From the IMG/VR virus record IMGVR_UViG_3300020410_000017, positions 1 to 51,040 of that record: a DNA stretch of 51,040 bases. One strand, given 5' to 3'. The DNA comes from a virus. Taxonomy: Duplodnaviria > Caudoviricetes. Made by a program: the position numbers and the translations under genes. Of this stretch, positions 1,796 through 47,448 are shown in pieces (position 1 is the first letter of the stretch; each line of letters opens with the position of its first letter). The notes below the pieces were generated by a model, which saw nothing but the letters and a program-made list of their open reading frames with translations, was not told the origin of the DNA and ran no database searches.

Positions 1796-2150
1796 GCCCG
1801 TTTGGATCGAATTCTGCAAATGCAATTGGCATGCCAAAATCCCAGCCCCACCGCCGGCCAGCATGCCCGATGGGCTGCCGGTGCCCGATGTAGGCAATCG
1901 CCCACACCCGCCCACACTTGCCGCCCCTTTTCTATATATAGGGCCACGGCTGGCGCTCTTGCTTTGCTTTTTGTCGACGTGTGACGACGTCATTTGTTAC
2001 CCTTTTGCGCTTGGCCCTGGTTCGGGCCTGGTTTGGCTGGGATCGTGATCCCTGGCTTGGGATCAAATTTATCAGCTTTCGGCCCGATCTCCTACCGTTG
2101 GCCCAGATCTGACCCCCTCAAATTCGAGGTGCTAAGGGTGCTTAAACTGC

Positions 2151-2205
2151 TTTTTTTGTTTATTTGTGTTTTTATACTGACAAACGCTTTTCTGGTCCTT
2201 ATTGT
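2151..2205 (+). promoter_or_regulatory. Sigma70-type early promoter with T-rich UP-like element
   Basis: CTGACA(2177)-N17-TATTGT(2200), preceded by T-tracts; just upstream of the 2240 gene. Confidence 0.5.
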
Positions 2206-2239
2206 GTAAACACAAACCAAGCACGAAAAGGATCACATT

Positions 2240-2668
2240 ATGAACACCGAAAAAACCATCACCCTTCACGATATCACTAACGCAACCGATGCTGAAATTG
2301 ATCAGCTCCTCGGCACCTCCGAGCCCGAGCCCGAGCCCCCCAAGGGCTCGGCAAATCCCTTTTGGGCTGGCGTTGAGGAAATGGCCGTGGCCGCCATGAC
2401 CAAAGCCCTTGTTGACGCTGGCAAGGGTTATGCAGCCCCCAGGGCTCTTGAGGCCTGGACCGGTCCCAAGAGCTGGAGCGGTCGCCAGGTGGTCAAGGCC
2501 TTTCACGGCATCGACTCGACCGGCGGGCACAACGGCTGCTTTGTTGTTGTCGTCGACCTCGAACACCCACGGGACGCGATTGACGAAACTTCCAGGGACT
2601 TCACCGGCTTCACCGTCACTGTCCTCAAAACTCGCGATCTTAAAATTCTCATTTACACCGCCGAATAA
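2240..2668 (+). CDS. Hypothetical protein (GC-rich island gene 1)
   Basis: 142 aa ORF; RBS AAGGA upstream. Confidence 0.75.
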   Translation: MNTEKTITLHDITNATDAEIDQLLGTSEPEPEPPKGSANPFWAGVEEMAVAAMTKALVDAGKGYAAPRALEAWTGPKSWSGRQVVKAFHGIDSTGGHNGCFVVVVDLEHPRDAIDETSRDFTGFTVTVLKTRDLKILIYTAE

Positions 2669-2669
2669 G

Positions 2670-2710
2670 CCCCAACCAAACACCAAACACAGCCCGCCGT
2701 CACGGCGGGC
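2670..2710 (+). repeat. Intergenic repeat unit with GC hairpin, copy 1
   Basis: CCCCAACCAAACACCAAACACAGCCCGCCGT identical to 3077-3107; GCCCGCC..GGCGGGC stem. Confidence 0.9.
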
Positions 2711-2725
2711 AAAGGAGCCCGAACC

Positions 2726-3076
2726 ATGACCACAGCCACCACACCCGCCGCCGCCACGATCCCCATTTACGCCACCGGTTACATTGAGATCGCCCGTCAC
2801 GGGCGGATCGTTTTAACCGTCCGCCCTGGCATGATCCACGGTCCCGAATTCGCCACCTTTACCATGGCGAATTCTTATGACCCCAGCGCTGGGGTTTACT
2901 GGGGACGATACACCCGAGGCGCTGCAACCGCTCTCTTGGCCTTTGCCGAGCGTGCTTACCTCCCGCATCACGAGGCGCTTGAACTCGCCGCAGCGGGCAT
3001 CCTGCGCCTTGCCAGGGTCAACGCCGTGGCTGCCGATACCCTTGAGGCGCTTTCCATCGATCTTTTGAGTTCCTAA
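2726..3076 (+). CDS. Hypothetical protein (island gene 2)
   Basis: 116 aa ORF; RBS AAGGAG. Confidence 0.75.
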   Translation: MTTATTPAAATIPIYATGYIEIARHGRIVLTVRPGMIHGPEFATFTMANSYDPSAGVYWGRYTRGAATALLAFAERAYLPHHEALELAAAGILRLARVNAVAADTLEALSIDLLSS

Positions 3077-3114
3077 CCCCAACCAAACACCAAACACAGC
3101 CCGCCGTGGCGGGC
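3077..3114 (+). repeat. Intergenic repeat unit with GC hairpin, copy 2
   Basis: 31 bp identical to 2670-2700, followed by GGCGGGC. Confidence 0.9.
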
Positions 3115-3133
3115 ATTTTGAAAGGCCAACACC

Positions 3134-3679
3134 ATGCAAACGAAGACAACACATCGCCCCCAATACACCACACGCGAGCGCCTCACGGTGACCCGCTTAT
3201 ATGCCCGCAATTACGGCGGGACGGCCACACCCGAAAGCCTTGAAGGCTGGGAGGCCTTGAGCGCCATGGTTCACCGCGCCGCCGTGGCTGTGTCTCAGTT
3301 GATGCGGATCGAGCGCAAGCTTCGCCGCCATTATGAGGACGCCGCCAACGGTTGGCCCACACCGATCCGCGAAACCCGTTTTGATGCCCAGGGCCGCCCA
3401 CGGGTCTTTACATACAGCATTGAAGACACAGATCGCCGCGCACGCTCCGAGGTTGCCACGGCCAAGCTTGAAGCCAAAGCCACCGCCCTTGCTGCTGAGT
3501 ACGGATTTGAGATTCGGATCAATTCCGACCCTCGAGGGGCCGCCATCAAGCTGAATGTGATTCCACAGCCCAACCCTAGCGCGGCTGATTCGATTGAATA
3601 TGCCGGCATGGACACCGATCTTCTTTGTGACGACGTGGGCCGCATCGAAGATCGCAATTCACGCCTTGTCAGCCAGTAA
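3134..3679 (+). CDS. Hypothetical phage protein (island gene 3)
   Basis: 181 aa; NSDPRGAAIKL resembles an N-x-D-P-R-G motif I recall from uncharacterised phage proteins. Confidence 0.75.
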   Translation: MQTKTTHRPQYTTRERLTVTRLYARNYGGTATPESLEGWEALSAMVHRAAVAVSQLMRIERKLRRHYEDAANGWPTPIRETRFDAQGRPRVFTYSIEDTDRRARSEVATAKLEAKATALAAEYGFEIRINSDPRGAAIKLNVIPQPNPSAADSIEYAGMDTDLLCDDVGRIEDRNSRLVSQ

Positions 3680-3707
3680 CCCCAACCCCCAGCAAAAGGA
3701 TCCAACC

Positions 3708-4157
3708 ATGACGAACCGAACCGAAATCGCCGCCTTGATCACTAACCTCCATGCCGCCCAAGCCCAGGCCATGGCCGCCGCCGTTGCCGTTGATGCTGCG
3801 CACGCTCGGCTTAAATCGCTGCAAGCCCCAAGCCCAGCCGAACGGGCTACGCTCCAAGCGCTTGACGCTCTCAAGGCCGCACACGAAGCCGTTGCCGATC
3901 TTGAGGGTGTTAAAAAGGACGTTTGCCCACGGTGGGCCCGCGCCCTTGGCCCTGGCCATAGCGTGTGCACGACTGCGGGAACCTTCTCAACGACCGAGCG
4001 CACCGCATGGAAAGGCGTTGCCCAAGAACTCTTGAACCAATGGGATCCCGTTGCGGCCCACAAGCTTGTTCAACGCCACACAAAGCCCAGCCACCGCCTA
4101 ACGATGGCCAAGCAACGCACCGCCCAAATCGCACACCTGGCACGCTTGGGGGCGTAG
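3708..4157 (+). CDS. Hypothetical Ala-rich coiled-coil protein (island gene 4)
   Basis: ATG 3708 after AAGGA RBS, inside listed ORF 3594-4157. Confidence 0.7.
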   Translation: MTNRTEIAALITNLHAAQAQAMAAAVAVDAAHARLKSLQAPSPAERATLQALDALKAAHEAVADLEGVKKDVCPRWARALGPGHSVCTTAGTFSTTERTAWKGVAQELLNQWDPVAAHKLVQRHTKPSHRLTMAKQRTAQIAHLARLGA

Positions 4158-5844: not shown

Positions 5845-7008
5845 TTAGTTACAGTCAACCGCCAGCAGCGCTAAGATATCCTCAACCATCCACACCGATG
5901 GCCCCAGCAGTATTATTTCTCCGCCTGTGGGGTGAACTAGATCTTGGTAGTCACCAACAACGCCAACAATAGTAGCTGCATAAACAATAATACCAGCATC
6001 GATACACGCCGTAATAGCGTCTTGAACCGTGTTGCCTTCAATGCTCTGCGGTGCTTCATCCGAAAATACAATAATTGCTTTTGTCGAGTCTGTTCGCCAC
6101 GAGACTTCCGCACCGATACAGGTATTGTAAACGGCATCAATAGTCGGCTCAGAGCCTCCTCCAACACTTGAAACATTTGTAATAACCCCCTGAAAAGTTG
6201 CTGCATCCACAAGGTCGCTTATGAGCAACATGTTGCTGTATGTATAGGTTTCCGGCACCACGCCCCCAGGAACCCGAGCCGCACCAAAAAGACTGTCGGT
6301 GTCTTCCAGTGATCCGGCTATTCGATACGCAGTGGTTACGGACTCGCCGGTAAGGACTCCCATGGAGCCGCTCGCGTCAATGATAAAGAAAACATCGAAT
6401 TCTGACGACAAGTCTTCGTCAACAAACCCATCGCAATCATTATCTAGGCCATCGCAAATTTCTGTGGTTGGCACGCGCTCATACATGCACACAAGTTCGC
6501 CGCTCACGCACTCCATCATCCCTGCGCGGCATTCGCCATGGGCTAAAGTCTCAGGATCCGCAGTATAACAAAGCTCCATGCCATCAAGGTTATCAACCAG
6601 GCCGTCGCAATCATCATCGATGCCGTTACACTGCTCTGGTGATCCGTCTTCTCTTCCGTTACAGATTTTTTGTCCTTCATAACAAATCTCCCGTCCCGCT
6701 TGGCATGCTCCAACATCAATACCGCAAGCTTGACCCACCCACTCTTCGGCAATGTTGTTGTCCGTTGTGCCATCGCAATCATTATCGATCATGTCGCACA
6801 ATTCATCCTCGGGCGTTACCTGGCCCTCGCAATCAACCACAACGTCATTCTCGTCGCACAATGTCACCCCAGCCTCACAGATACCCTGTCCAGCCGTACC
6901 TGTGGGGCCAGTGTAACATGGCAAATTGCAGACACGGGAGACCATTACAATGTCATCATCGCATGCCTGCAAAAACATAAAAAACAATAAAAACAACACA
7001 GCTTTCAT
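5845..7008 (-). CDS. Lipoprotein with MopE-like Cys/Asp-rich repeats and C-terminal vWA domain
   Basis: Lipobox LQAC (Cys16); three E-x-C-[DN]-x-x-D-[ND]-D-C-D-G repeats; vWA MIDAS DASGS...T...SDE. Confidence 0.8.
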   Translation of the reverse strand: MKAVLFLLFFMFLQACDDDIVMVSRVCNLPCYTGPTGTAGQGICEAGVTLCDENDVVVDCEGQVTPEDELCDMIDNDCDGTTDNNIAEEWVGQACGIDVGACQAGREICYEGQKICNGREDGSPEQCNGIDDDCDGLVDNLDGMELCYTADPETLAHGECRAGMMECVSGELVCMYERVPTTEICDGLDNDCDGFVDEDLSSEFDVFFIIDASGSMGVLTGESVTTAYRIAGSLEDTDSLFGAARVPGGVVPETYTYSNMLLISDLVDAATFQGVITNVSSVGGGSEPTIDAVYNTCIGAEVSWRTDSTKAIIVFSDEAPQSIEGNTVQDAITACIDAGIIVYAATIVGVVGDYQDLVHPTGGEIILLGPSVWMVEDILALLAVDCN

Positions 7009-9544: not shown

Positions 9545-10896
9545 TGCCACGTTCCCCTAATTTGGATGTTTTAGGATATTCCGGCCTCAATCAAACCGGT
9601 GGAAATATTTATGAAGAATGGCTGAATAAGCTATCTGGCGACCGCGCAACCCGAGTATATCAGGAAATGCGCGACAACGACGCAATTATCGGAGCGATTC
9701 TATACGCCATCAAAGCGCTGGTTCGACAAGTCCCGTGGGCGGTTGCGGAAAATCATTCCGGCCACCCGCAGGCCGAACGCGCAGCAGAGTTTTTGCGTGA
9801 GTGCGCGTTTGATGACATGTCGCTGACTTGGGAAGACTTGATATCGGAAATCTTGAGCATGTTGGTTTTTGGGTACTCGGCTTTTGAGATTGTATATAAA
9901 ATCCGGCGCGGCCCCAGCTCTAGGAGTTCTAAGTATAAGTCTAAGTATACAGACGGGCTCATTGGATGGCGAAAGATCGCTATGCGCGGCCAGGATTCAA
10001 TTTCCCGCTGGGAGATTGATGAGGATGGCGGCATCAGGGGTTTTTATCAAAACGGTGGCCCTGATTTTCAGACCGTGTTTATTCCCATGCAAAAAGCACT
10101 GCTGTTTCGGACAGAGGTCAACAAAAACAATCCCGAAGGACGGTCGCTGCTGCGGAACGCCTATCGGTCCTATTTTTTCTTAAAGCGCATCCAGGAACTC
10201 GAAGCCATCGGAATTGAGCGTGAGCTTGCAGGCCTGCCTGTGTTGCAGGTTCCGCCAGAAATCATGATGCCCAATGCAAAGGCGGAGCAAAAAACTCTTC
10301 GCAACAACCTTGAAACTCTAATCCAGCAAATCCGGCGCGACGAACGAGAAGGCGTTTTAATGCCTTCCGAAGTGGACTCTGACAACCGGCCCACAGGGTT
10401 TAAGTTGTCGCTTTTGTCCACCGGTGGCCGCCGTCAAATTGACACCAACGAGACCATTAAGCGGTACGAGTCCCGTATTGCCATGTCTGTACTGGCCGAG
10501 TTTATTTTGCTTGGTACCGACTCCCACGGCTCCTTCGCCCTGGCGTCATCTAAAACTGAGCTTTTTGCTGCGGCACTGGGCGGGATATTGGACTCTATTG
10601 AGGCGGTCATGAATCGGTTTGCCGTTACACGGCTCATGCAGCTTAATCCGGTTTTTCCTCCCGAGGCATGGCCTCGATTTAAGCACGGCGACATTGAAAA
10701 GGCCCCATTGGATGAGATTGGCACTTTTATTCAGCGTGTTGCTGGCGCAAACCTAATCACGCCTGATGCGGCCATTGAGGCAAAAATAAGAGAAATTGCC
10801 GGACTGCCCGAGGCTGGACCCGAAACCGCATTGATTGAAGAAGATGCAGAGGAAGACATGTTGCAGGAGGAAGAAGATGCCCTACAAGACGCCTGA
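9544..10896 (+). CDS. Portal protein (DUF935-like)
   Basis: Follows terL; LVFGYSAFEIVYK, NPEGRSLLRNAYRSY, GIERELAGLP, GSFALA motifs; ATG 9544 overlaps terL stop. Confidence 0.88.
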   Translation: MPRSPNLDVLGYSGLNQTGGNIYEEWLNKLSGDRATRVYQEMRDNDAIIGAILYAIKALVRQVPWAVAENHSGHPQAERAAEFLRECAFDDMSLTWEDLISEILSMLVFGYSAFEIVYKIRRGPSSRSSKYKSKYTDGLIGWRKIAMRGQDSISRWEIDEDGGIRGFYQNGGPDFQTVFIPMQKALLFRTEVNKNNPEGRSLLRNAYRSYFFLKRIQELEAIGIERELAGLPVLQVPPEIMMPNAKAEQKTLRNNLETLIQQIRRDEREGVLMPSEVDSDNRPTGFKLSLLSTGGRRQIDTNETIKRYESRIAMSVLAEFILLGTDSHGSFALASSKTELFAAALGGILDSIEAVMNRFAVTRLMQLNPVFPPEAWPRFKHGDIEKAPLDEIGTFIQRVAGANLITPDAAIEAKIREIAGLPEAGPETALIEEDAEEDMLQEEEDALQDA

Positions 10897-12517
10897 GCAG
10901 GCCTACGCCGTAGCGCGGTCAATGGGATGTGATTCAGTACATAAAATGCCGAACGGGTCATATATGCCCTGTGGCTCGAACGAGGAATATCAGAGGATGA
11001 AAAAAGATGGAATCGATAAGGCGAATAATTCAATACCGCTGCCTGTTGAGAATGCTTTGCGTAGAAAAATGCGATCCCACAACAAAAGGTTCGGAGAGAA
11101 TAAAGAAACTCGTACAACTCTTGGAGCTTTAAAGTCTGTGTACAAGCGCGGGCTCGACACCTATAAGCCTAATCGCGCTCAAACGCCCGAGAAGTGGGCC
11201 ATGGGATATGTCAACTCATACCTGAACCGGCTCGGCCCAAAAAAAATGGAAAAAACCAGCGATATTTTTAAGGCCCGTGAGGCATTCAATGGACTCTACC
11301 CGCTCATGGTTTCCGCAGACGGCCAGCACCCGTCCGAGGCTCGCTCATGGCAAGACTTTGTGATGCTTGCGAAGTCCTGCACAAAAGCCTTCGCGAGCAT
11401 TGATGATAGGCCATTTTTTATTTTCAATCGAGCCCCTCAAATTGTGCTGAAGGTAGACGAGAAGAAAAATCATTCTTTATTTCCTGGGAAGCACCGATAC
11501 CGTCTTGTGGACAACGAGGGCAACACCATTGAAACGGGCTGGGTTGATGAAGACTTTAGTATAGCGGATCATGTTAGGGTTGATGGGGTTGATGAGGAAA
11601 TTACATCGGTAACAAGCACCACACTAACCGACGAAGACAGCATTATCGAAGATATTGCAACCGTTATCTCAGAGGCAACGACGACAGAAGAATATTTGGG
11701 CGGAATTATTCCCAACAAGGTTGAAAAAAACGCCACCATTGTCTTTTTGTCTTTGATGCCGACTCTTGACGAGAAAAACGCAGGCCGTGCTCTTGCTGGC
11801 AGTATTGAGAAGAATTTGACGGAACAAATTATTGACCCCATTGAGGCTGACTTGTCCCAGGTAAGCTTTGTCAACATTGTCCCTTTTGAGACCCTTGATG
11901 CAGGCGGAAAGAGATCTACCCCCTCTCGGGAACTTGTCGAGCAATGGTCACCGGTGGTGCTTGACGCCATTGGCAAAGCCGACCACCGCGCCGTTGTTGT
12001 GGCGCTGGGCAAGGACACCGCAGAGCATTACGCCGATGTGGTTGATTTTGTTATGCCGCACCCATTTTCAAAGTCCAAATACAGCCTTCCTCGAAAAGTC
12101 GAAGAGCTTAAAAAAACATATTCCAGCAAGTTTGATCGACAGGTTAAAATTGCCAAAAGCGACATTGACAGACGTTTAGTTTACGGTGTTGTTTTGGAGC
12201 CAGAAGTAATTGATGCACATAATGACATTGTTTCGATTGACGAAATCGAAAACGCAGCGCATAATTACCTCATAAAGTCTCGAATGATTGGCGATCAGCA
12301 CAGCAAGCCAGCCAAAGCAGACATAGTAGAAAGTTACATTGCACCCGCCGATCTGGATATAGGTGGTCAGCAAATCAAAAAAGGCTCTTGGGTCATGGTT
12401 ACGAAAGTACACGATGACAACATGTGGAGCGGGATCAAGAAGGGTGCCTATACAGGTTACTCTATTGGTGGCTACGCAGTAAAAGAGCCGATTGAAGACG
12501 GGCGTTTAGCACAGTAA
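10877..12517 (+). CDS. Multidomain prohead protease: DUF3721-like + DUF5824-like + degenerate UDG-like + XkdF-like serine protease
   Basis: C-terminal RLVYGVVLEP...DQH...VESYIAP...GSWV...GYSIGG (XkdF-like); AGGAGG RBS before ATG 10877. Confidence 0.8.
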   Translation: MPYKTPEQAYAVARSMGCDSVHKMPNGSYMPCGSNEEYQRMKKDGIDKANNSIPLPVENALRRKMRSHNKRFGENKETRTTLGALKSVYKRGLDTYKPNRAQTPEKWAMGYVNSYLNRLGPKKMEKTSDIFKAREAFNGLYPLMVSADGQHPSEARSWQDFVMLAKSCTKAFASIDDRPFFIFNRAPQIVLKVDEKKNHSLFPGKHRYRLVDNEGNTIETGWVDEDFSIADHVRVDGVDEEITSVTSTTLTDEDSIIEDIATVISEATTTEEYLGGIIPNKVEKNATIVFLSLMPTLDEKNAGRALAGSIEKNLTEQIIDPIEADLSQVSFVNIVPFETLDAGGKRSTPSRELVEQWSPVVLDAIGKADHRAVVVALGKDTAEHYADVVDFVMPHPFSKSKYSLPRKVEELKKTYSSKFDRQVKIAKSDIDRRLVYGVVLEPEVIDAHNDIVSIDEIENAAHNYLIKSRMIGDQHSKPAKADIVESYIAPADLDIGGQQIKKGSWVMVTKVHDDNMWSGIKKGAYTGYSIGGYAVKEPIEDGRLAQ

Positions 12518-41305: not shown

Positions 41306-41821
41306 TCAATAATTTAAAGTTTTTGTTTCAAGATCTTTATGAAACCCACAGTATACGCAACTGTAGTATTTTTCTTTATACCCCACTGCCAAGTGCAAAC
41401 CCATTGAATTGCACTTGGGGCATATTTTCTTAGATCCAGATCTTGAAACCGGCCCGCCAGCGACGTGTCCATAGCTTATTGATTTTTCATCCTTATATGT
41501 TTTTATGCATACAATATTGCTTTTTTTTCGTGGTGTCTCCTCGGCTTTTCTTGGGTATTTTTTTTTAATTTCTTGAACCCTGAATGGGTGCAGCAAGGCC
41601 ATGACCCGATCTAGGGATAAGACCTCTTCGCCCGCCGCGATGCCGATGCGCTCCACCGCCTCTTCTCGGGCCGTTACGTCAGGATCTTTTTTGTATCCTC
41701 TCTTCATTTGAATATTGTAAGAGGCAAACTCCCTGGCAATTGCTGGAGTTTCTTTTTGGTTTTTTTCGGACAATAAAATTGCGTTTAAAATTTTCTTGGC
41801 CAAGGCCTGGCGTGCGGTCAT
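41306..41821 (-). CDS. Hypothetical protein with C-terminal Zn ribbon
   Basis: CPKC...CVYCG; start 41821 after GGAG. Confidence 0.65.
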   Translation of the reverse strand: MTARQALAKKILNAILLSEKNQKETPAIAREFASYNIQMKRGYKKDPDVTAREEAVERIGIAAGEEVLSLDRVMALLHPFRVQEIKKKYPRKAEETPRKKSNIVCIKTYKDEKSISYGHVAGGPVSRSGSKKICPKCNSMGLHLAVGYKEKYYSCVYCGFHKDLETKTLNY

Positions 41822-42036
41822 TGCTCCCCCTCCGGCCTTTCGGCGCAAGAATGTATTTTTACGTCTGCAAGCCCGCAGTGTTCACATTTTAGTTTTATGC
41901 CGCATCGTTGGCAATTTAGCTCTGGTGCGCCACCAAACAGGCTGCATGTAAAGCACCGGTCAACACCGTTGGACATTTTCTTAGGTTTCAAATCTGCCTC
42001 TGCTGGACTCCCCATTTCTTTTCTTATCATAGCCAT
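41818..42036 (-). CDS. Small multi-CxxC Zn-finger protein
   Basis: CFTC, CQRC, CEHC; start inferred within ORF 41818-42255. Confidence 0.55.
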   Translation of the reverse strand: MAMIRKEMGSPAEADLKPKKMSNGVDRCFTCSLFGGAPELNCQRCGIKLKCEHCGLADVKIHSCAERPEGEQ

Positions 42037-42040
42037 TGCC

Positions 42041-42319
42041 CTATGAGAATGTTTCGGAGGCCGGATCGTAAAACCCGATGATTTGATATCCGCCTTCTGA
42101 TACGTAAGAAAAACGAGCAATCGTAACAACACACCCCTTAAATGGCTCCAGGATGTGGCGCGAACAAGAGTCTTTAATCTTCTTAATAAGATCTGAAACA
42201 TTAATTTTGTACGCAGTCTCGCTTTTTCCACTAAACGGTATTCCAAGTTCTTCACAAGTATCTTTTGTGAAAAAAAACACCATGCTCAGATATTCATCTC
42301 GAAACTCTGGTCTATCCAT
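42041..42319 (-). CDS. Hypothetical protein
   Basis: 92 aa ORF in the operon. Confidence 0.55.
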   Translation of the reverse strand: MDRPEFRDEYLSMVFFFTKDTCEELGIPFSGKSETAYKINVSDLIKKIKDSCSRHILEPFKGCVVTIARFSYVSEGGYQIIGFYDPASETFS

Positions 42320-42519
42320 TTCTCAACCTCTTCTTTTGTTGTCATGTATGGTGCAGCGCCACGCCCGTGACCAAGCCGGATGGCCCTAAGCTTCCCTGCT
42401 TTTATGGCTGTTATTACCTGGCGCTTATTAAGAAAAGAATATTCTTTTTCAATATCCGATGTGGACAGGCCGTTCTCTTCAATTTCTCTTAAAAACTCAA
42501 TCTTTTCATTTTTTGACAT
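42286..42519 (-). CDS. Excisionase-like/HTH_17 DNA-binding protein
   Basis: LNKRQVITAIKAGKLRAIRLG...YMTTKEEVEKWI winged-HTH pattern; GAGGAG RBS. Confidence 0.65.
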   Translation of the reverse strand: MSKNEKIEFLREIEENGLSTSDIEKEYSFLNKRQVITAIKAGKLRAIRLGHGRGAAPYMTTKEEVEKWIDQSFEMNI

Positions 42520-42520
42520 A

Positions 42521-42823
42521 TTAACACTCCTCAAAATAAAGGGGATTTATCCACCACAGGGCCAGTTCGCCCTCATCGTTTATGCTTACGTTTATGAGCT
42601 TGTCCCCAGAGGACACATTTATGCGCCCGCCGTTTATGGTCGCGTCGAGACCGGTTTCCTCTATGAATTTTTTAGCAACAGACTCTTTCCTGAAGCAACA
42701 CATAAAGCCGTTGTGCCTGGAAATTATATCTCTTACATTTGAAGAATGAATTGGCATCGCCTGCACTTGAGTCTCTTGCCTTGGCAGCATATCCATCCGA
42801 AACGAATCAGTTAAAAATAACAT
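42521..42823 (-). CDS. DUF1874/STIV B116/AcrIII-1-like protein, catalytic motif degenerate
   Basis: LFLTDSFRMDML...ESVA...ETG....N...INVSSGDKL pattern matches DUF1874 by eye; GH motif replaced by RK. Confidence 0.55.
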   Translation of the reverse strand: MLFLTDSFRMDMLPRQETQVQAMPIHSSNVRDIISRHNGFMCCFRKESVAKKFIEETGLDATINGGRINVSSGDKLINVSINDEGELALWWINPLYFEEC

Positions 42824-43151
42824 CTATTCTCTCCCCTTGAAAAAGCCACTCGGCAACAACCCCAGAACCCTCCTGGGATATATCTACCGAGCGCCACTGG
42901 ACATTGAAAACACCCAGCTCGTTTGAATGTAGAACGAATTGGTTGCCTGGTATTTTTAGCAACACGCCACGGTCTACAAAACTCTCTTTGCACAAATCGG
43001 CAACCTCAAAAACAAAAGCATATCGACTGCTGTCATCAACAGAAAAAGAAACCAAGTCGCACCTATCAGCCGACTGAAAAAATGACACAGGATACCTGTC
43101 TTGAAGATTGGCGGCCTTGGGGTTCATGTAACAAAAAATCTCTGCGTCCAT
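42807..43151 (-). CDS. Hypothetical protein
   Basis: 114 aa ORF in the operon. Confidence 0.55.
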   Translation of the reverse strand: MDAEIFCYMNPKAANLQDRYPVSFFQSADRCDLVSFSVDDSSRYAFVFEVADLCKESFVDRGVLLKIPGNQFVLHSNELGVFNVQWRSVDISQEGSGVVAEWLFQGERIDVIFN

Positions 43152-43152
43152 A

Positions 43153-43605
43153 TTATTTCCCGTAAACCCACATCATCAACACATGCTGCTCTGGCGATAG
43201 CGCTACCTTCAAATTGACACCGAATGAGGTCTTCAGAATGGGGGGGTGCTGATATGCCGCGCAAAGCTCTCGATGGGTGACTAGCTTGTCATCTTGAACG
43301 TATTTCTTGGCAAATTTTTCTGTTTTCATTATGCGGTCTTTTTCGCGCCAGAAAAATATTGAAGCACCGTATGTTTTGCTTTCTTCGTCTTGAAAAATAT
43401 CTGGTGAATATGCGCTGCACCGCCACCACCACGATTCCTGTTTCAGCTTGGTGCCGGTTACCCGCTTGGGTATTTTAAAGGATTTAATGATAATGCTTCC
43501 TTCCTCGAAGTCCACATTGGTGCGCAGGGCCCTGCTTATGACCTCTTGAGGGAAGTCGCCGTAGCGCTCGGTAAACTCCATTACATTTTCAATCATGCTA
43601 CTCAT
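43153..43605 (-). CDS. Hypothetical protein
   Basis: Start inferred at MSSMIEN within ORF 43153-43662. Confidence 0.55.
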   Translation of the reverse strand: MSSMIENVMEFTERYGDFPQEVISRALRTNVDFEEGSIIIKSFKIPKRVTGTKLKQESWWWRCSAYSPDIFQDEESKTYGASIFFWREKDRIMKTEKFAKKYVQDDKLVTHRELCAAYQHPPILKTSFGVNLKVALSPEQHVLMMWVYGK

Positions 43606-43819
43606 TTGGAATCCACCCAGCCCAGTAGCCAACCTCACCCTGGGCAAAATTAAAAGTTTCATACAGCGTCATGAGTTTAAGCTCGCCCCTGCTCCAGCGA
43701 ATCTCTGAGCGAACAGGCCGCAACAGCATTGTTCTTTTTCCTTTTCTCATGCGTACTTCTTTTACTTCAAGACCGAACTGTGGAATGCGAAGCTCATAAG
43801 GGTCGGTCATATTAATCAT
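43598..43819 (-). CDS. Hypothetical protein
   Basis: 73 aa ORF coupled to neighbours. Confidence 0.5.
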   Translation of the reverse strand: MINMTDPYELRIPQFGLEVKEVRMRKGKRTMLLRPVRSEIRWSRGELKLMTLYETFNFAQGEVGYWAGWIPNE

Positions 43820-44036
43820 TAAAATCGCCCCTTCTCAAGAAAAGAGTATCATCAAAATGCGTCACCACCGCATCTTTAGCGCCAATAAAATAATCACAAC
43901 TGCCATCCCTTATGGGGCTAGGCGTCAAATATTCTTGCAGGTGCCTCGGCTCGGTCTTGTACCGGTAGCAGTCGTCGCGTAGGTTGCAATTTTCGCCACG
44001 GCACAGCGGCGTATTTTTATCTACCAAGATTGCCAT
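43812..44036 (-). CDS. Conserved small Cys-rich phage protein
   Basis: C.G..C..R..CYRY...P....C.YF motif; AGGAG RBS before ATG 44036. Confidence 0.65.
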   Translation of the reverse strand: MAILVDKNTPLCRGENCNLRDDCYRYKTEPRHLQEYLTPSPIRDGSCDYFIGAKDAVVTHFDDTLFLRRGDFND

Positions 44037-44292
44037 AGTTTCTCCTGAATGACTCCATGACTTCATCGTGAATGGCTTGACAGTGGGCGTCGTTGCGGCC
44101 ATTTACAATAAAATTTCCATCTGGATACACTTCAACAACGGCGTCCTTGTATGGAACGATTCGCCGCTCACCTATATCGCCTGCAAACTTTTTCTTTATT
44201 TTTTCAATGCGCTCAATTTCTTTAATGTGCATACTGTGAGCAATTAACGCTACGACAAACATGACCGCTGAAAAATAAAAATACCATTCCAT
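44017..44292 (-). CDS. Hypothetical membrane protein
   Basis: N-terminal TM helix. Confidence 0.6.
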   Translation of the reverse strand: MEWYFYFSAVMFVVALIAHSMHIKEIERIEKIKKKFAGDIGERRIVPYKDAVVEVYPDGNFIVNGRNDAHCQAIHDEVMESFRRNYGNLGR

Positions 44293-44304
44293 AAAAACCC
44301 CTTT

Positions 44305-44859
44305 TTAGACCTCATCATAGGTCATTGCTTGTTTCATTTTATCCAGTGCTTCTTTTCTTATCATTGAAACGCCTGACTCTGTAAGATTCATGCTTTCGCC
44401 AATCTTTTTAAGGGTGTCTCCCCTGTAAAAGCTCAGCCATATTATAGAGATTTCTCTGGCGCTTAACCTAGAAAAACCAAACGCCAGTAAAAGCCTTGTG
44501 TCCACGATATCAAAACCTCGTTCCCTGGTGGGGATTTCTGTGTTTTCAACGCAAAGGCTTTCGGTCATAGGGTCAAGATCCCTGATGACATCCCCAAGAT
44601 AAAGATCTTTGCGGTGGCCAATAATTTTCTTGGCCTTTCGCACTATACGATCTTTTTTTGGGTCTTCTCGACGGATACCATCTATAATGGCGTATTTAAT
44701 TTTCCACTGAGCGTAGCTCTCAAAGCTTATGTTGCTGTTTTCTGGAGAATAAGTTTCAACGGCTTTTTGATATCCGATCCACCCGTAGCCATACAGATCT
44801 CTTTTGTTGTGCGGCAATCTCATTCTCGCAACGGTTGCCCTTATAAGCCTCATCATCAT
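44305..44859 (-). CDS. Phage RNA polymerase sigma factor, FliA/WhiG (sigma28)-like
   Basis: Region 2 DL...G.IG...AV..Y......SF.SYA...I..AI.D..RR; region 4 LSARE..II.L.FY...TLKKIG..MNLTESGVS.I...AL.KMK. Confidence 0.85.
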   Translation of the reverse strand: MMMRLIRATVARMRLPHNKRDLYGYGWIGYQKAVETYSPENSNISFESYAQWKIKYAIIDGIRREDPKKDRIVRKAKKIIGHRKDLYLGDVIRDLDPMTESLCVENTEIPTRERGFDIVDTRLLLAFGFSRLSAREISIIWLSFYRGDTLKKIGESMNLTESGVSMIRKEALDKMKQAMTYDEV

Positions 44860-45059
44860 AACAGCGCATGCCTTTCCGCGAAACATTTCGCCAAGGCCAG
44901 CGAATGATGACAGCAAAGATAATCCCATCCGCGCCCGCTGTTGCGATAAACCCAGAAACTCTTGGCCGTCGCTTCATAAATTCTATACTGACAGCCCATG
45001 ATCGATGCCGCCGCACAGCCCTTATCTGTTTTTATGTTTTGCCACGCTGTTAAGGTCAT
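44856..45059 (-). CDS. Hypothetical protein
   Basis: 67 aa; ATGA-coupled to the sigma gene. Confidence 0.5.
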   Translation of the reverse strand: MTLTAWQNIKTDKGCAAASIMGCQYRIYEATAKSFWVYRNSGRGWDYLCCHHSLALAKCFAERHALL

Positions 45060-46253: not shown

Positions 46254-46624
46254 ATAATCGCCACCAGGCCCAATGCCTCAGCGGCCTCGGATGCGCATAT
46301 GGCATTAAAAAGATCTTCATCGGTCTTCACGTCATCGTATTTTTTAAGGTCTGCGATTGAAAATTTTTCATAAAGGGGGGTCATGCAGAACCCATCTTTA
46401 TGCTTGAAAAGGCCATAGGTGACGCTTCGCACGCCCAGACCGGAAGTGTCACGCCATGCCCGAAGATGGGCTACCAATTCTTCATCGTCGCAGGGCTCAA
46501 AGGCAAAGTCTGGTATGCCCACACAGCCGCGCACGATAACCCAGCCCAAGTCATCGACCTCAACCGAGTCCATGTTTGGCGTGCGCCACCGAAGGCCCGT
46601 CCATTCTGCAAACTCTAACCCCAT
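46250..46624 (-). CDS. Hypothetical protein
   Basis: Start uncertain within ORF 46250-46681. Confidence 0.55.
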   Translation of the reverse strand: MGLEFAEWTGLRWRTPNMDSVEVDDLGWVIVRGCVGIPDFAFEPCDDEELVAHLRAWRDTSGLGVRSVTYGLFKHKDGFCMTPLYEKFSIADLKKYDDVKTDEDLFNAICASEAAEALGLVAII

Positions 46625-47448
46625 CGGCTCTTGTCCATGCATTTTTTTATTTTTTGAATAACAGTGTCCGGCTTGGCGCAAACGTCAGGCTCGTGATCGA
46701 TGGCGCTCCAAACCTCATACTGTCGACCCCAATCGCCGTAAGGGAAAGTGCAATGGCCACGCGAGCCCCAATTGTACCCCCATGAATTTCGTATCTGAAA
46801 GCCGTGAAGATCCCAGCCAACAACGGCCATGGCATGGCCGCCCATCTTTTTGTAACCCTGCTCTTTGATCCACATGCGTGAAGGTATGATATATTTTTGG
46901 TGCTCTACGGTTGACGATCCGGTCCACGGTTTTGCATAAACCGGCACCACGATAACACATGGGCCATTAAGGTAAATTGCGCGTTTGGTATCCTGAACAG
47001 TCGTACACTTCGCGAAGCCTTGAATGCGATAAAACTCGGCTTCTTTTTTTAGCTCCGAAGCCATCTTTTTTAGCCCGATGGGCGGTGTGTCTTTCCCTTG
47101 ACGGTAAGGATACGACTTTTCCAGCGGTGCGCCATGTACACGCAAAAATTTCAGGGCATTGCGAACATTCATGCCACGCCCAGATCGGTTTTTTGGGCGG
47201 CAGTCGTAAATAAACTGTGGGCTCAGATAACCTTTATCCAGCAAATGTTTAAGGTTGTTTCGCTCTTGCATCGCCGCAAGGGACTGGGCCACGCATGACC
47301 CTTGTGGCCCCTGGTTGCGGATTCCAAACATATCCTCCCTTAAAGAAAAACTTTCAGGAAGGGGGGGCCTTGTTGCCACTGCTTGATCAAAAAGAAGATC
47401 GCGTTCATCGTAGGGCGATGCCGCGATCATAAAATCTGGATTTTTCAA
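46615..47448 (-). CDS. Papain-like (C1A) cysteine protease
   Basis: NQGPQGSC, LSPQFIY, GGHAM.VVGWD, IRNSWG..WG.RG; catalytic Q/C/H/N present. Confidence 0.9.
   Translation of the reverse strand: MKNPDFMIAASPYDERDLLFDQAVATRPPLPESFSLREDMFGIRNQGPQGSCVAQSLAAMQERNNLKHLLDKGYLSPQFIYDCRPKNRSGRGMNVRNALKFLRVHGAPLEKSYPYRQGKDTPPIGLKKMASELKKEAEFYRIQGFAKCTTVQDTKRAIYLNGPCVIVVPVYAKPWTGSSTVEHQKYIIPSRMWIKEQGYKKMGGHAMAVVGWDLHGFQIRNSWGYNWGSRGHCTFPYGDWGRQYEVWSAIDHEPDVCAKPDTVIQKIKKCMDKSRWG

Follow-up and report, generated by a model that had tools for sequence, protein, structure and literature searches.

A probable remote relative of DUF1874 proteins that lacks the canonical ring nuclease site, encoded by a small lineage of marine tailed phages

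The available literature, as far as its titles and abstracts go, treats DUF1874 proteins as dedicated cA4 ring nucleases, and all 33 canonical sequences collected here keep the catalytic His as well as Arg66 and Arg85. The locus considered here raises the question of what a phage protein might do that resembles this family but has none of these residues in place. A first-pass annotation, made by eye, had described it as an AcrIII-1/DUF1874-like protein without the catalytic histidine and as a possible sponge for cyclic nucleotides. The window, i.e. the whole stretch of DNA that was analysed, comprises 51,040 bases and is 98% complete according to CheckV. Its plus strand encodes the terminase, a Mu-like portal, a capsid protease, tail genes, a YqaJ recombinase, a helicase, a DUF927 primase, an SSB and a DNA methylase, and its minus strand carries a long arm of small genes that are mostly without known function. 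The best identities of the large terminase (43-52%) are to phages of Microcystis, Brevundimonas, Desulfofustis, Roseobacter, Pseudanabaena and Dinoroseobacter and indicate no clear host.

On re-reading, the open reading frame and the residues quoted in the first-pass annotation matched the sequence exactly. It is a real gene with a strong ribosome-binding site, and it is under strong purifying selection (see Table 1 for all coordinates). Thirteen family sequences were collected and collapsed to nine distinct ones, which stem from marine viral and metagenomic contigs. Every member is 100 aa long and free of indels; identities to the target protein range from 52 to 99%, and 42 of the 100 columns are invariant. 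Selection was analysed for the seven members with DNA (21 pairs), leaving out the protein-only sequences P0001 and P0003. Across these pairs, pN is 0.07-0.30 and pS 0.64-0.92. The dN/dS ratio is 0.05-0.16 in the seven pairs with unsaturated dS, dS being saturated in the other 14.

Table 1 Features of the target gene and its operon
Feature	Position	Strand	Remarks
Target CDS, divergent protein of probable DUF1874 fold	42521..42823	-	ATG start, 100 aa and TAA stop
Shine-Dalgarno-like GGGGAGAG	42829..42836	-	6-7 nt 5' of the target ATG; read off the coding strand
Target codons 1-12 (MLFLTDSFRMDM)	42788..42823	-	10 of 12 residues invariant in the family; aligned with the canonical YLANAFSxNM pocket and dimer motif
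Target codons 43-46 (C-F-R-K)	42686..42697	-	Invariant; R45-K46 at the place of canonical G46-H47
Target codons 80-84	42572..42586	-	Short turn at the site of the canonical lid loop (QYxGPRLxEGA); 11-column query gap in hhalign
Leftward operon, unbroken	41306..44928	-	Sigma factor, five small genes, target, HTH-like gene, 92-aa gene, two Cys-rich/Zn-ribbon genes
Sigma-factor gene	44305-44928	-	Sigma70_r4 3.3e-10, r2 1.7e-6; operon head
Upstream 114-aa gene	42807..43151	-	3' end overlaps the target start by 17 nt; same position in L002-L004
Downstream gene, weak HTH_17-like winged-helix candidate	42286..42519	-	Likely ATG at 42519, 1 nt past the target stop

The family is carried by a small lineage of marine tailed phages. 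A word-indexed search of 5.8 billion clusters returned two candidates, both relatives of the target. An exhaustive phmmer search of 1.84 billion representatives gave five matches at E<=0.001, P0003 being the sole full-length one. Two of the others (P0006 and P0007) were rejected as relatives on inspection, being repeat proteins, and P0004 (4071 aa, matched in 17 short stretches) and P0005 (2238 aa, seven stretches) were judged spurious from the match pattern alone. Pattern scans led from 35 matching stretches to three related viral contigs and, in metagenomes, from 188 stretches to six contigs with a family member. The same kind of scan yielded no family copy in representative prokaryote genomes (74 matching stretches); these therefore hold no prophage copy and give no clue to the host. 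Chance-level rows only, in five records and all at E>=4, were obtained by tblastn of the target against 50,697 phage records. Longer or fused forms were found in none of 6804 candidates at E<=0.01, which is weak evidence. The ESM Atlas contains the target sequence, with no usable feature match and no structure model.

The relationship to DUF1874 is out of reach of the Pfam model. At E<=1, hmmscan gave no row for PF08960 against the target, which thus stays below the gathering cutoff of 26 bits, and a six-frame search of the whole record with the same HMM had no match at E<=10. The positive control, SIRV1 ORF114, scored 100.7 bits (E 5.5e-29). Rows from NCBIfam lay far under the cutoff for the family (e.g. 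HgcC, 0.015). The target has a single PHROG match, phrog_5063 (E 8.7e-4; residues 1-82 aligned to positions 2-82 of the 111 in the profile), which is also the top match among 38,880 profiles for each of the four family members scanned (E 6.3e-4 to 8.7e-4). This is the DUF1874 phrog: it is matched by 18 of 18 canonical members, with a best E of 7.6e-44. Among PDB sequences, the single target protein matched only AFV3-109 (2j6b; phmmer E 0.32, residues 1-79). With a profile of four family sequences (hmmsearch), AFV3-109 improved to E 0.036 at the third rank. The tail fibre of phage P68 in the PDB (0.017), which is unrelated, and Lyx_isomer in Pfam (0.0028) were treated as chance matches, since both are sub-cutoff, partial alignments without support from the fold searches.

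Profile-profile comparison was more sensitive. For the canonical side, a search with SIRV1 ORF114 provided 19 relatives, 18 of which were aligned (P0010 was left out). A genome scan with the DUF1874 alignment found 19 loci, 15 of which were used; three near-identical to SIRV1 ORF114 (L011-L013) and one truncated locus (L022) were dropped. Support in hhalign grows as sequences are added to either side: four family against 18 canonical sequences gave a probability of 42.8% (P 2.5e-4), nine against 18 gave 81% (P 1.2e-5, score 34.1), and nine against 33 gave 95.5% (P 1.5e-8, score 50.2). Against a bacterial subgroup of seven sequences, the nine family members reached 94.6% (P 6.7e-8), with query positions 2-96 aligned to template positions 3-105. 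Column-shuffled controls scored at most 21.3 in one set (150 + 150, against the real 34.1) and 21.5 in another (100 + 100, against the real 50.2 and 45.9). Their smallest P values, 0.0026-0.015, are about those expected of a calibrated null, and reversed controls scored 11.7 and 14.4. The comparison with a DUF1874 profile proposed in the first-pass annotation hence has two outcomes, the Pfam HMM being blind to the target and hhalign detecting the relationship.

Structure prediction points to the same family. An AF2 model built from the family's own nine sequences only has a pLDDT of 62.5; the single-sequence model of the target (pLDDT 50) was too poor for use. When the family model was searched with Foldseek, as the first-pass annotation had suggested, ranks 1-10 were all DUF1874 chains (2x4i, 2j6b, 6scf, 2j85), with a best E of 1.5e-3, none as low as 0.001, and a TM of about 0.5. 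In VIA-align, 2j6c, 2j85, 8y7f and 8y7g took ranks 1-4 of 48,161 chains, with structural Z below 5 throughout, a range that may mean a common arrangement only. A fold search of BFVD listed a family member ahead of a rudivirus protein, with STIV B116 following at rank 11. The predicted model thus appears to have the three-dimensional fold of DUF1874, its top structural matches being AFV3-109 (2J6B/2J6C) and STIV B116 (2J85). A two-copy complex prediction from the nine-row alignment had a median score of 0.34 (mark 0.42, controls 0.00), which counts neither way on dimerisation.

The absolute structural scores are modest. Since four methods (PHROG, hhalign, Foldseek and VIA-align) agree on one family in one register, the target nevertheless very likely shares distant ancestry with the DUF1874 (AcrIII-1/Crn2) fold family. 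The by-eye alignment holds as well, as phmmer to AFV3-109, hmmsearch and hhalign all reproduce its register. A convergent or spurious resemblance, in which a generic small alpha/beta fold of separate ancestry happens to look like DUF1874, would have to account for this agreement, for a profile-profile signal of the above strength with well-behaved shuffles, and for a near full-length alignment to the bacterial subgroup with a single clean gap at a loop; it is considered very improbable.

Several features are shared with AcrIII-1/Crn2 (PF08960; SIRV1 gp29 = ORF114, PDB 2X4I, 6SCF). Both are small alpha/beta proteins with their elements in the same order across residues 1-80, the conserved hydrophobic core positions L4, F8 and M12 of the target correspond to canonical L6, F10 and M14, and both are viral, stand-alone proteins of about 100 aa. 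The best full-length match (3-105 of 112) is a bacterial DUF1874 subgroup with a short C-terminus, found in Polyangiales, Saccharibacteria, Clostridia, Fraserbacteria and a proteobacterial MAG (L023-L029). It resembles the target in this short C-terminus, and the target's DEGxLxxWWI is aligned with the LPxGAxxxWxxV strand of the subgroup. Unlike the target, all seven subgroup sequences retain the GPRLxEG lid along with NAFS, GH and the R66 position, and some occur as parts of larger fusion proteins, in contrast to the stand-alone target family. AFV3-109 and STIV B116 are likewise canonical His-bearing proteins, with GH in AFV3-109 where the target has RK.

The canonical site is well described. 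In the available text of the AcrIII-1 study (10.1101/778746), His47 is an absolutely conserved general acid whose replacement by Ala cuts catalysis more than 2500-fold. The same source lists R66, N8, Q81, S11, T50, S49 and N13 as side-chain contacts to cA4, and describes a loop (82-94) that closes over the ligand and is locked by R85. In the canonical set (n=33), none of the sequences lacks H47, R66, R85 or G89 (33 of 33 for each); T50 occurs in 32 and E88 in 31. N8, A9, F10, S11 and M14 also reach 33 of 33 each, but for 15 of the sequences the scan pattern itself required them.

Nearly all of this is replaced in the target family. Relative to SIRV1 gp29, N8 corresponds to D6, A9 to S7, S11 to R9, N13 to D11 and T50 to V/I49. 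The pair G46-H47 is R45-K46, invariant in nine of nine members, and N65 is kept as N64. R66 falls on position 65, which is variable in the family (G, N, R, P, K, E). The changes of GH to RK and of NR to NG read by eye, the latter at N64-G65, are borne out by the program alignments. That His catalysis is lost follows independently of any alignment, because two of the nine members are entirely free of histidine; this agrees with the histidine loss already noted by eye. The shortened RLxEG loop was also correctly recognised: the lid loop QYxGPRLxEGA with R85, E88 and G89 corresponds to a single 11-column query gap against the bacterial subgroup. The AF2 model predicts a tight beta-hairpin (E76-81, E87-92) at the lid site and no C-terminal helix, an element that canonical AcrIII-1 has.

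With His47, Asn8, Ser11, Thr50 and Arg66 replaced and the Arg85 lid deleted, the target, as judged from its residues, cannot act as a canonical cA4 ring nuclease. It is placed outside AcrIII-1/Crn2, though built on the DUF1874 scaffold, because it fails the Pfam threshold and has neither the His nor the binding residues nor the lid. An AcrIII-1 that has lost catalysis but retains cA4 binding, one form of the dead cyclic-oligonucleotide binder proposed in the first-pass annotation, would explain a DUF1874 fold without the catalytic His. The loss of His alone is compatible with cA4 binding, because the H47A variant of SIRV1 gp29 was co-crystallised with bound cA4, according to the accessible part of that report (10.1101/778746). 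In the target, however, the binding residues and the lid are lost along with the His: the contacts N8, S11 and T50 are replaced (by D, R and V/I), no constraint is seen at the R66 position, and the R85 lid is gone. Sequestration of cA4 is therefore highly unlikely.

The fold is thus kept without the canonical machinery in a viral clade under purifying selection, which argues for a second use of the DUF1874 scaffold. No description of a His-less DUF1874 clade was found in the literature on DUF1874/AcrIII-1 ring nucleases at the level of titles and abstracts, which is not proof of its absence. As a short and stand-alone gene, the target can be assayed in vitro without knowing the uncultured host.

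What this use may be is suggested by the distribution of invariant residues. Invariance in the family is highest along the N-terminal motif (10 of 12 residues), which is aligned with the segment lining the canonical ligand pocket. The invariant charged residues are D6, R9, D11, E17, R45, K46, E56, D60, D74, K75, E84, E98 and E99. The N-terminal motif and CFRK are the most constrained parts, the lost R66 and R85 are matched by the new invariant cations R9, R45 and K46, and two Asn at contact positions are replaced by Asp (D6, D11). For these reasons, a rewired DUF1874-type pocket at the dimer axis, which would sequester or cleave a different anionic small ligand, is tentatively favoured as a plausible reading that falls somewhat short of probable. 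A claim of demonstrable constraint on the same surface as in canonical proteins was dropped, because family-invariant positions were not significantly enriched in canonical conserved columns (6/10 versus 27/69, P 0.18) or in canonical contact columns (4/9 versus 29/70, P 0.57).

If the pocket is rebuilt in this way, the most plausible class of ligand would be another nucleotide-derived immune signal, and the protein would help the phage in host takeover or anti-defence. Sponge and enzyme modes are rated about equal. An enzyme would have to use non-His chemistry, either Ser/Thr and Lys as in Crn1 or metal assistance via the Asp residues. Crn1 ring nucleases are metal-independent and use Ser/Thr and Lys instead of His, as stated in the part of the source that was available (PMC8284326).

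The same charged residues could be read differently. In a protein-binding inhibitor or adaptor, the DUF1874 scaffold would be reused as a small acidic dimer that acts on a host or phage protein and has no small-molecule ligand. The loss of all signature ligand-binding and catalytic residues together with the lid would fit such a role, as would the many invariant charged residues, the pI of 4.5-5.0 across the family and the presence of genes for a sigma factor and an HTH-like protein in the same operon. [quoted passage not shown] Unlike the target, SIRV2 gp37 keeps the full ring-nuclease site, and its partner is restricted to Crenarchaeota according to the authors, again as given in that portion (10.1101/2023.01.10.523387). 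Acidity cannot decide the function, because canonical AcrIII-1 proteins are just as acidic (pI 4.93 in SIRV1 gp29). Furthermore, the most invariant stretch of the target is the very segment that lines the canonical ligand pocket. Protein binding is accordingly regarded as possible but rather unlikely; it would support the recent argument for viral DUF1874 roles beyond type III CRISPR.

Returning to the rebuilt pocket, a more specific form of this reading is that the family is the first re-targeted AcrIII-1/DUF1874 clade, a lid-less and His-less one whose pocket of Asp6, Arg9, Asp11, Arg45 and Lys46 acts, by binding or cleavage, on a nucleotide immune signal different from cA4. Candidate signals may include cA3, cA6, a CBASS cyclic di- or trinucleotide and a Thoeris-type signal. 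This specific form is doubtful. Were it true, the ring-nuclease fold would be a general, evolvable anti-signalling scaffold of phages. Use against another immune signal would also widen the range of signals that phages neutralise and would provide a compact binder or enzyme of 100 aa.

For Csx16, a type III CRISPR ring nuclease that is partly DUF1874-like, the Pfam and NCBIfam libraries used presumably included models, and the family gave only chance-level rows at E<=1. Csx16 shows that the wider fold class recurs among ring nucleases, according to the accessible text of the source (PMC12409355). Tad1, Tad2, Acb2 and Acb4, small phage oligomers that sequester immune signals, offer only a possible functional analogy, to judge from the available part of the source (PMC11722364). 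Their folds are unrelated to that of the target, Acb4 belonging to PF13876 and being dsRBD-like, according to the same part (PMC11722364). None of the four was found for the target in Pfam at E<=1 or among the Foldseek and VIA-align matches listed. The eight genes around the target and 26 further genes scanned had no match to known anti-defence families.

The genomic context bears on two further readings. The target is about the seventh gene in an operon of about 11, and the gene order is identical in the three related contigs examined (L002, L003 and L004), which are syntenic relatives of one phage lineage. The upstream 114-aa gene has no Pfam or PHROG match at E<=1. The downstream gene matches HTH_17 in three of four members at E<=0.1 (best 0.0027), all under the Pfam cutoff of 27 bits. 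Another role of the fold, e.g. nucleic-acid binding or that of a regulatory subunit working with this HTH-like protein or with the phage sigma factor, unrelated to immune signalling, would account for the conserved gene order, for the sigma factor at the head of the operon and for the translational coupling to the HTH-like gene across the 1-nt gap, where a GAGGAG Shine-Dalgarno sequence for that gene lies inside the last codons of the target. The conserved adjacency is, however, not independent evidence, because it is seen only in one syntenic phage lineage. In addition, no nucleic-acid-binding family was found at E<=1 in Pfam or NCBIfam, and neither the searches nor the literature on the fold, as far as available, revealed a precedent for such a role of DUF1874. 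A role of this kind is therefore considered improbable.

The first-pass annotation had further likened the target and its neighbour to an acr-aca arrangement. An HTH-like candidate does adjoin the target, but its HTH_17 match is sub-threshold, and the target lies mid-operon, where neither a separate promoter nor an operator would fit in front of it, so this reading is weak. The target begins inside the upstream gene, and from 44928 to 41306 the coding sequence runs on without a break. Promoter-like sites in the operon were not above chance (13 found, 8.1 +/- 2.6 expected), and no inverted repeats were found in the single gap of appreciable size upstream of the sigma-factor gene. For the HTH-like gene, the listing of open reading frames had extended the start to a TTG at 42534, the ATG at 42519 being the likelier start. 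Its best PDB chain is 4j2n_A, Gp37, at E 0.25.

The Glu-Glu-Cys at the C-terminus of the 100-aa divergent DUF1874-fold protein is invariant among the nine distinct sequences of its family. It is encoded by GAGGAGTGT (window 42521-42532, minus strand), within which GAGGAG forms the Shine-Dalgarno sequence of the downstream HTH-like gene. Because this hexamer serves both genes, part of the apparent protein conservation at residues 98-99 may reflect a nucleotide-level constraint. The automatic ORF call places the start of the HTH-like gene upstream of this motif. In two of the syntenic related viral contigs (L003 and L004), the start of the homologous gene aligns instead with an internal ATG at 42519 that is directly served by GAGGAG, and the real product is probably the shorter form of 77 aa initiated there.

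The operon closes with two Cys-rich proteins, both of which are kept in all three syntenic contigs (L002-L004). The 180-aa protein carries a zinc ribbon at its C-terminus, for which weak matches to a Cas12f1-like TNB domain (E 0.011) and to phrog_12574 (E 5.1e-4) were obtained.

Features of the operon end and of other parts of the window
Feature	Position	Strand	Annotation
387-aa protein	5845-7008	-	MopE-type metal-binding motif (E 4.3e-12), von Willebrand A domain
560-aa ORF 3' of portal	10835-12517	+	DUF3721, uracil-DNA-glycosylase superfamily, XkdF-type protease
Cys-rich protein, operon end	41306-41848	-	ORF
Cys-rich protein, operon end	41818-42255	-	ORF
Downstream HTH-like gene	42286-42534	-	automatic ORF call: TTG start at 42534, 82 aa
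C1 cysteine peptidase	46615-47448	-	papain family (E 2e-19)

A Foldseek search of BFVD with the AF2 model built from the nine family sequences (mcececb07b7b6) returned, interspersed among DUF1874 matches, several uncharacterised proteins of 130-178 aa from the Erwinia jumbo phages vB_EamM_Kwan, Asesino and phiEaH2 (E 0.008-0.06). Judged from this predicted structure, they may constitute another divergent DUF1874-fold group; the query model is mediocre, and the matches may instead be noise.

Among the canonical DUF1874 loci of the genome scan, four proteins (L011, L012, L013 and L022) share 84-86% identity with ORF114 of the Sulfolobus rudivirus SIRV1. Their contigs come from assemblies that bear the names Aquimarina, Paenochrobactrum, Planomonospora and Streptomyces, and that of L013, with 31,951 bases, is about as large as a rudivirus genome. 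These loci look like assembly contamination rather than bacterial DUF1874 genes. P0010, from the relatives of SIRV1 ORF114, is cited alongside this reading. In four other loci, additional regions are joined to the canonical domain in predicted ORFs whose starts were chosen automatically. The DUF1874 domain is N-terminal in a predicted 573-aa ORF (L024), and follows a 70-aa extension in an Aquificota locus (L015, predicted start). The predicted ORFs of L023 (329 aa) and L028 (204 aa), from Polyangiales MAGs, have N-terminal extensions that are related to each other.

Elsewhere in the window, three elements meet in the 560-aa ORF, an unusual set for a head-maturation gene: a DUF3721 motif (E 3.9e-7), a region of the uracil-DNA-glycosylase superfamily whose match (E 4.5e-5) falls slightly short of the cutoff, and, at the C-terminus, a serine protease of the XkdF type (E 3e-34). 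The G+C content of positions 2001-4000 is 58.7%, compared with 44-53% elsewhere in the record, and the ORFs of this segment had no matches in Pfam or PHROG. The genes for the C1 peptidase and the MopE/von Willebrand A protein both lie within an arm of otherwise unknown genes.
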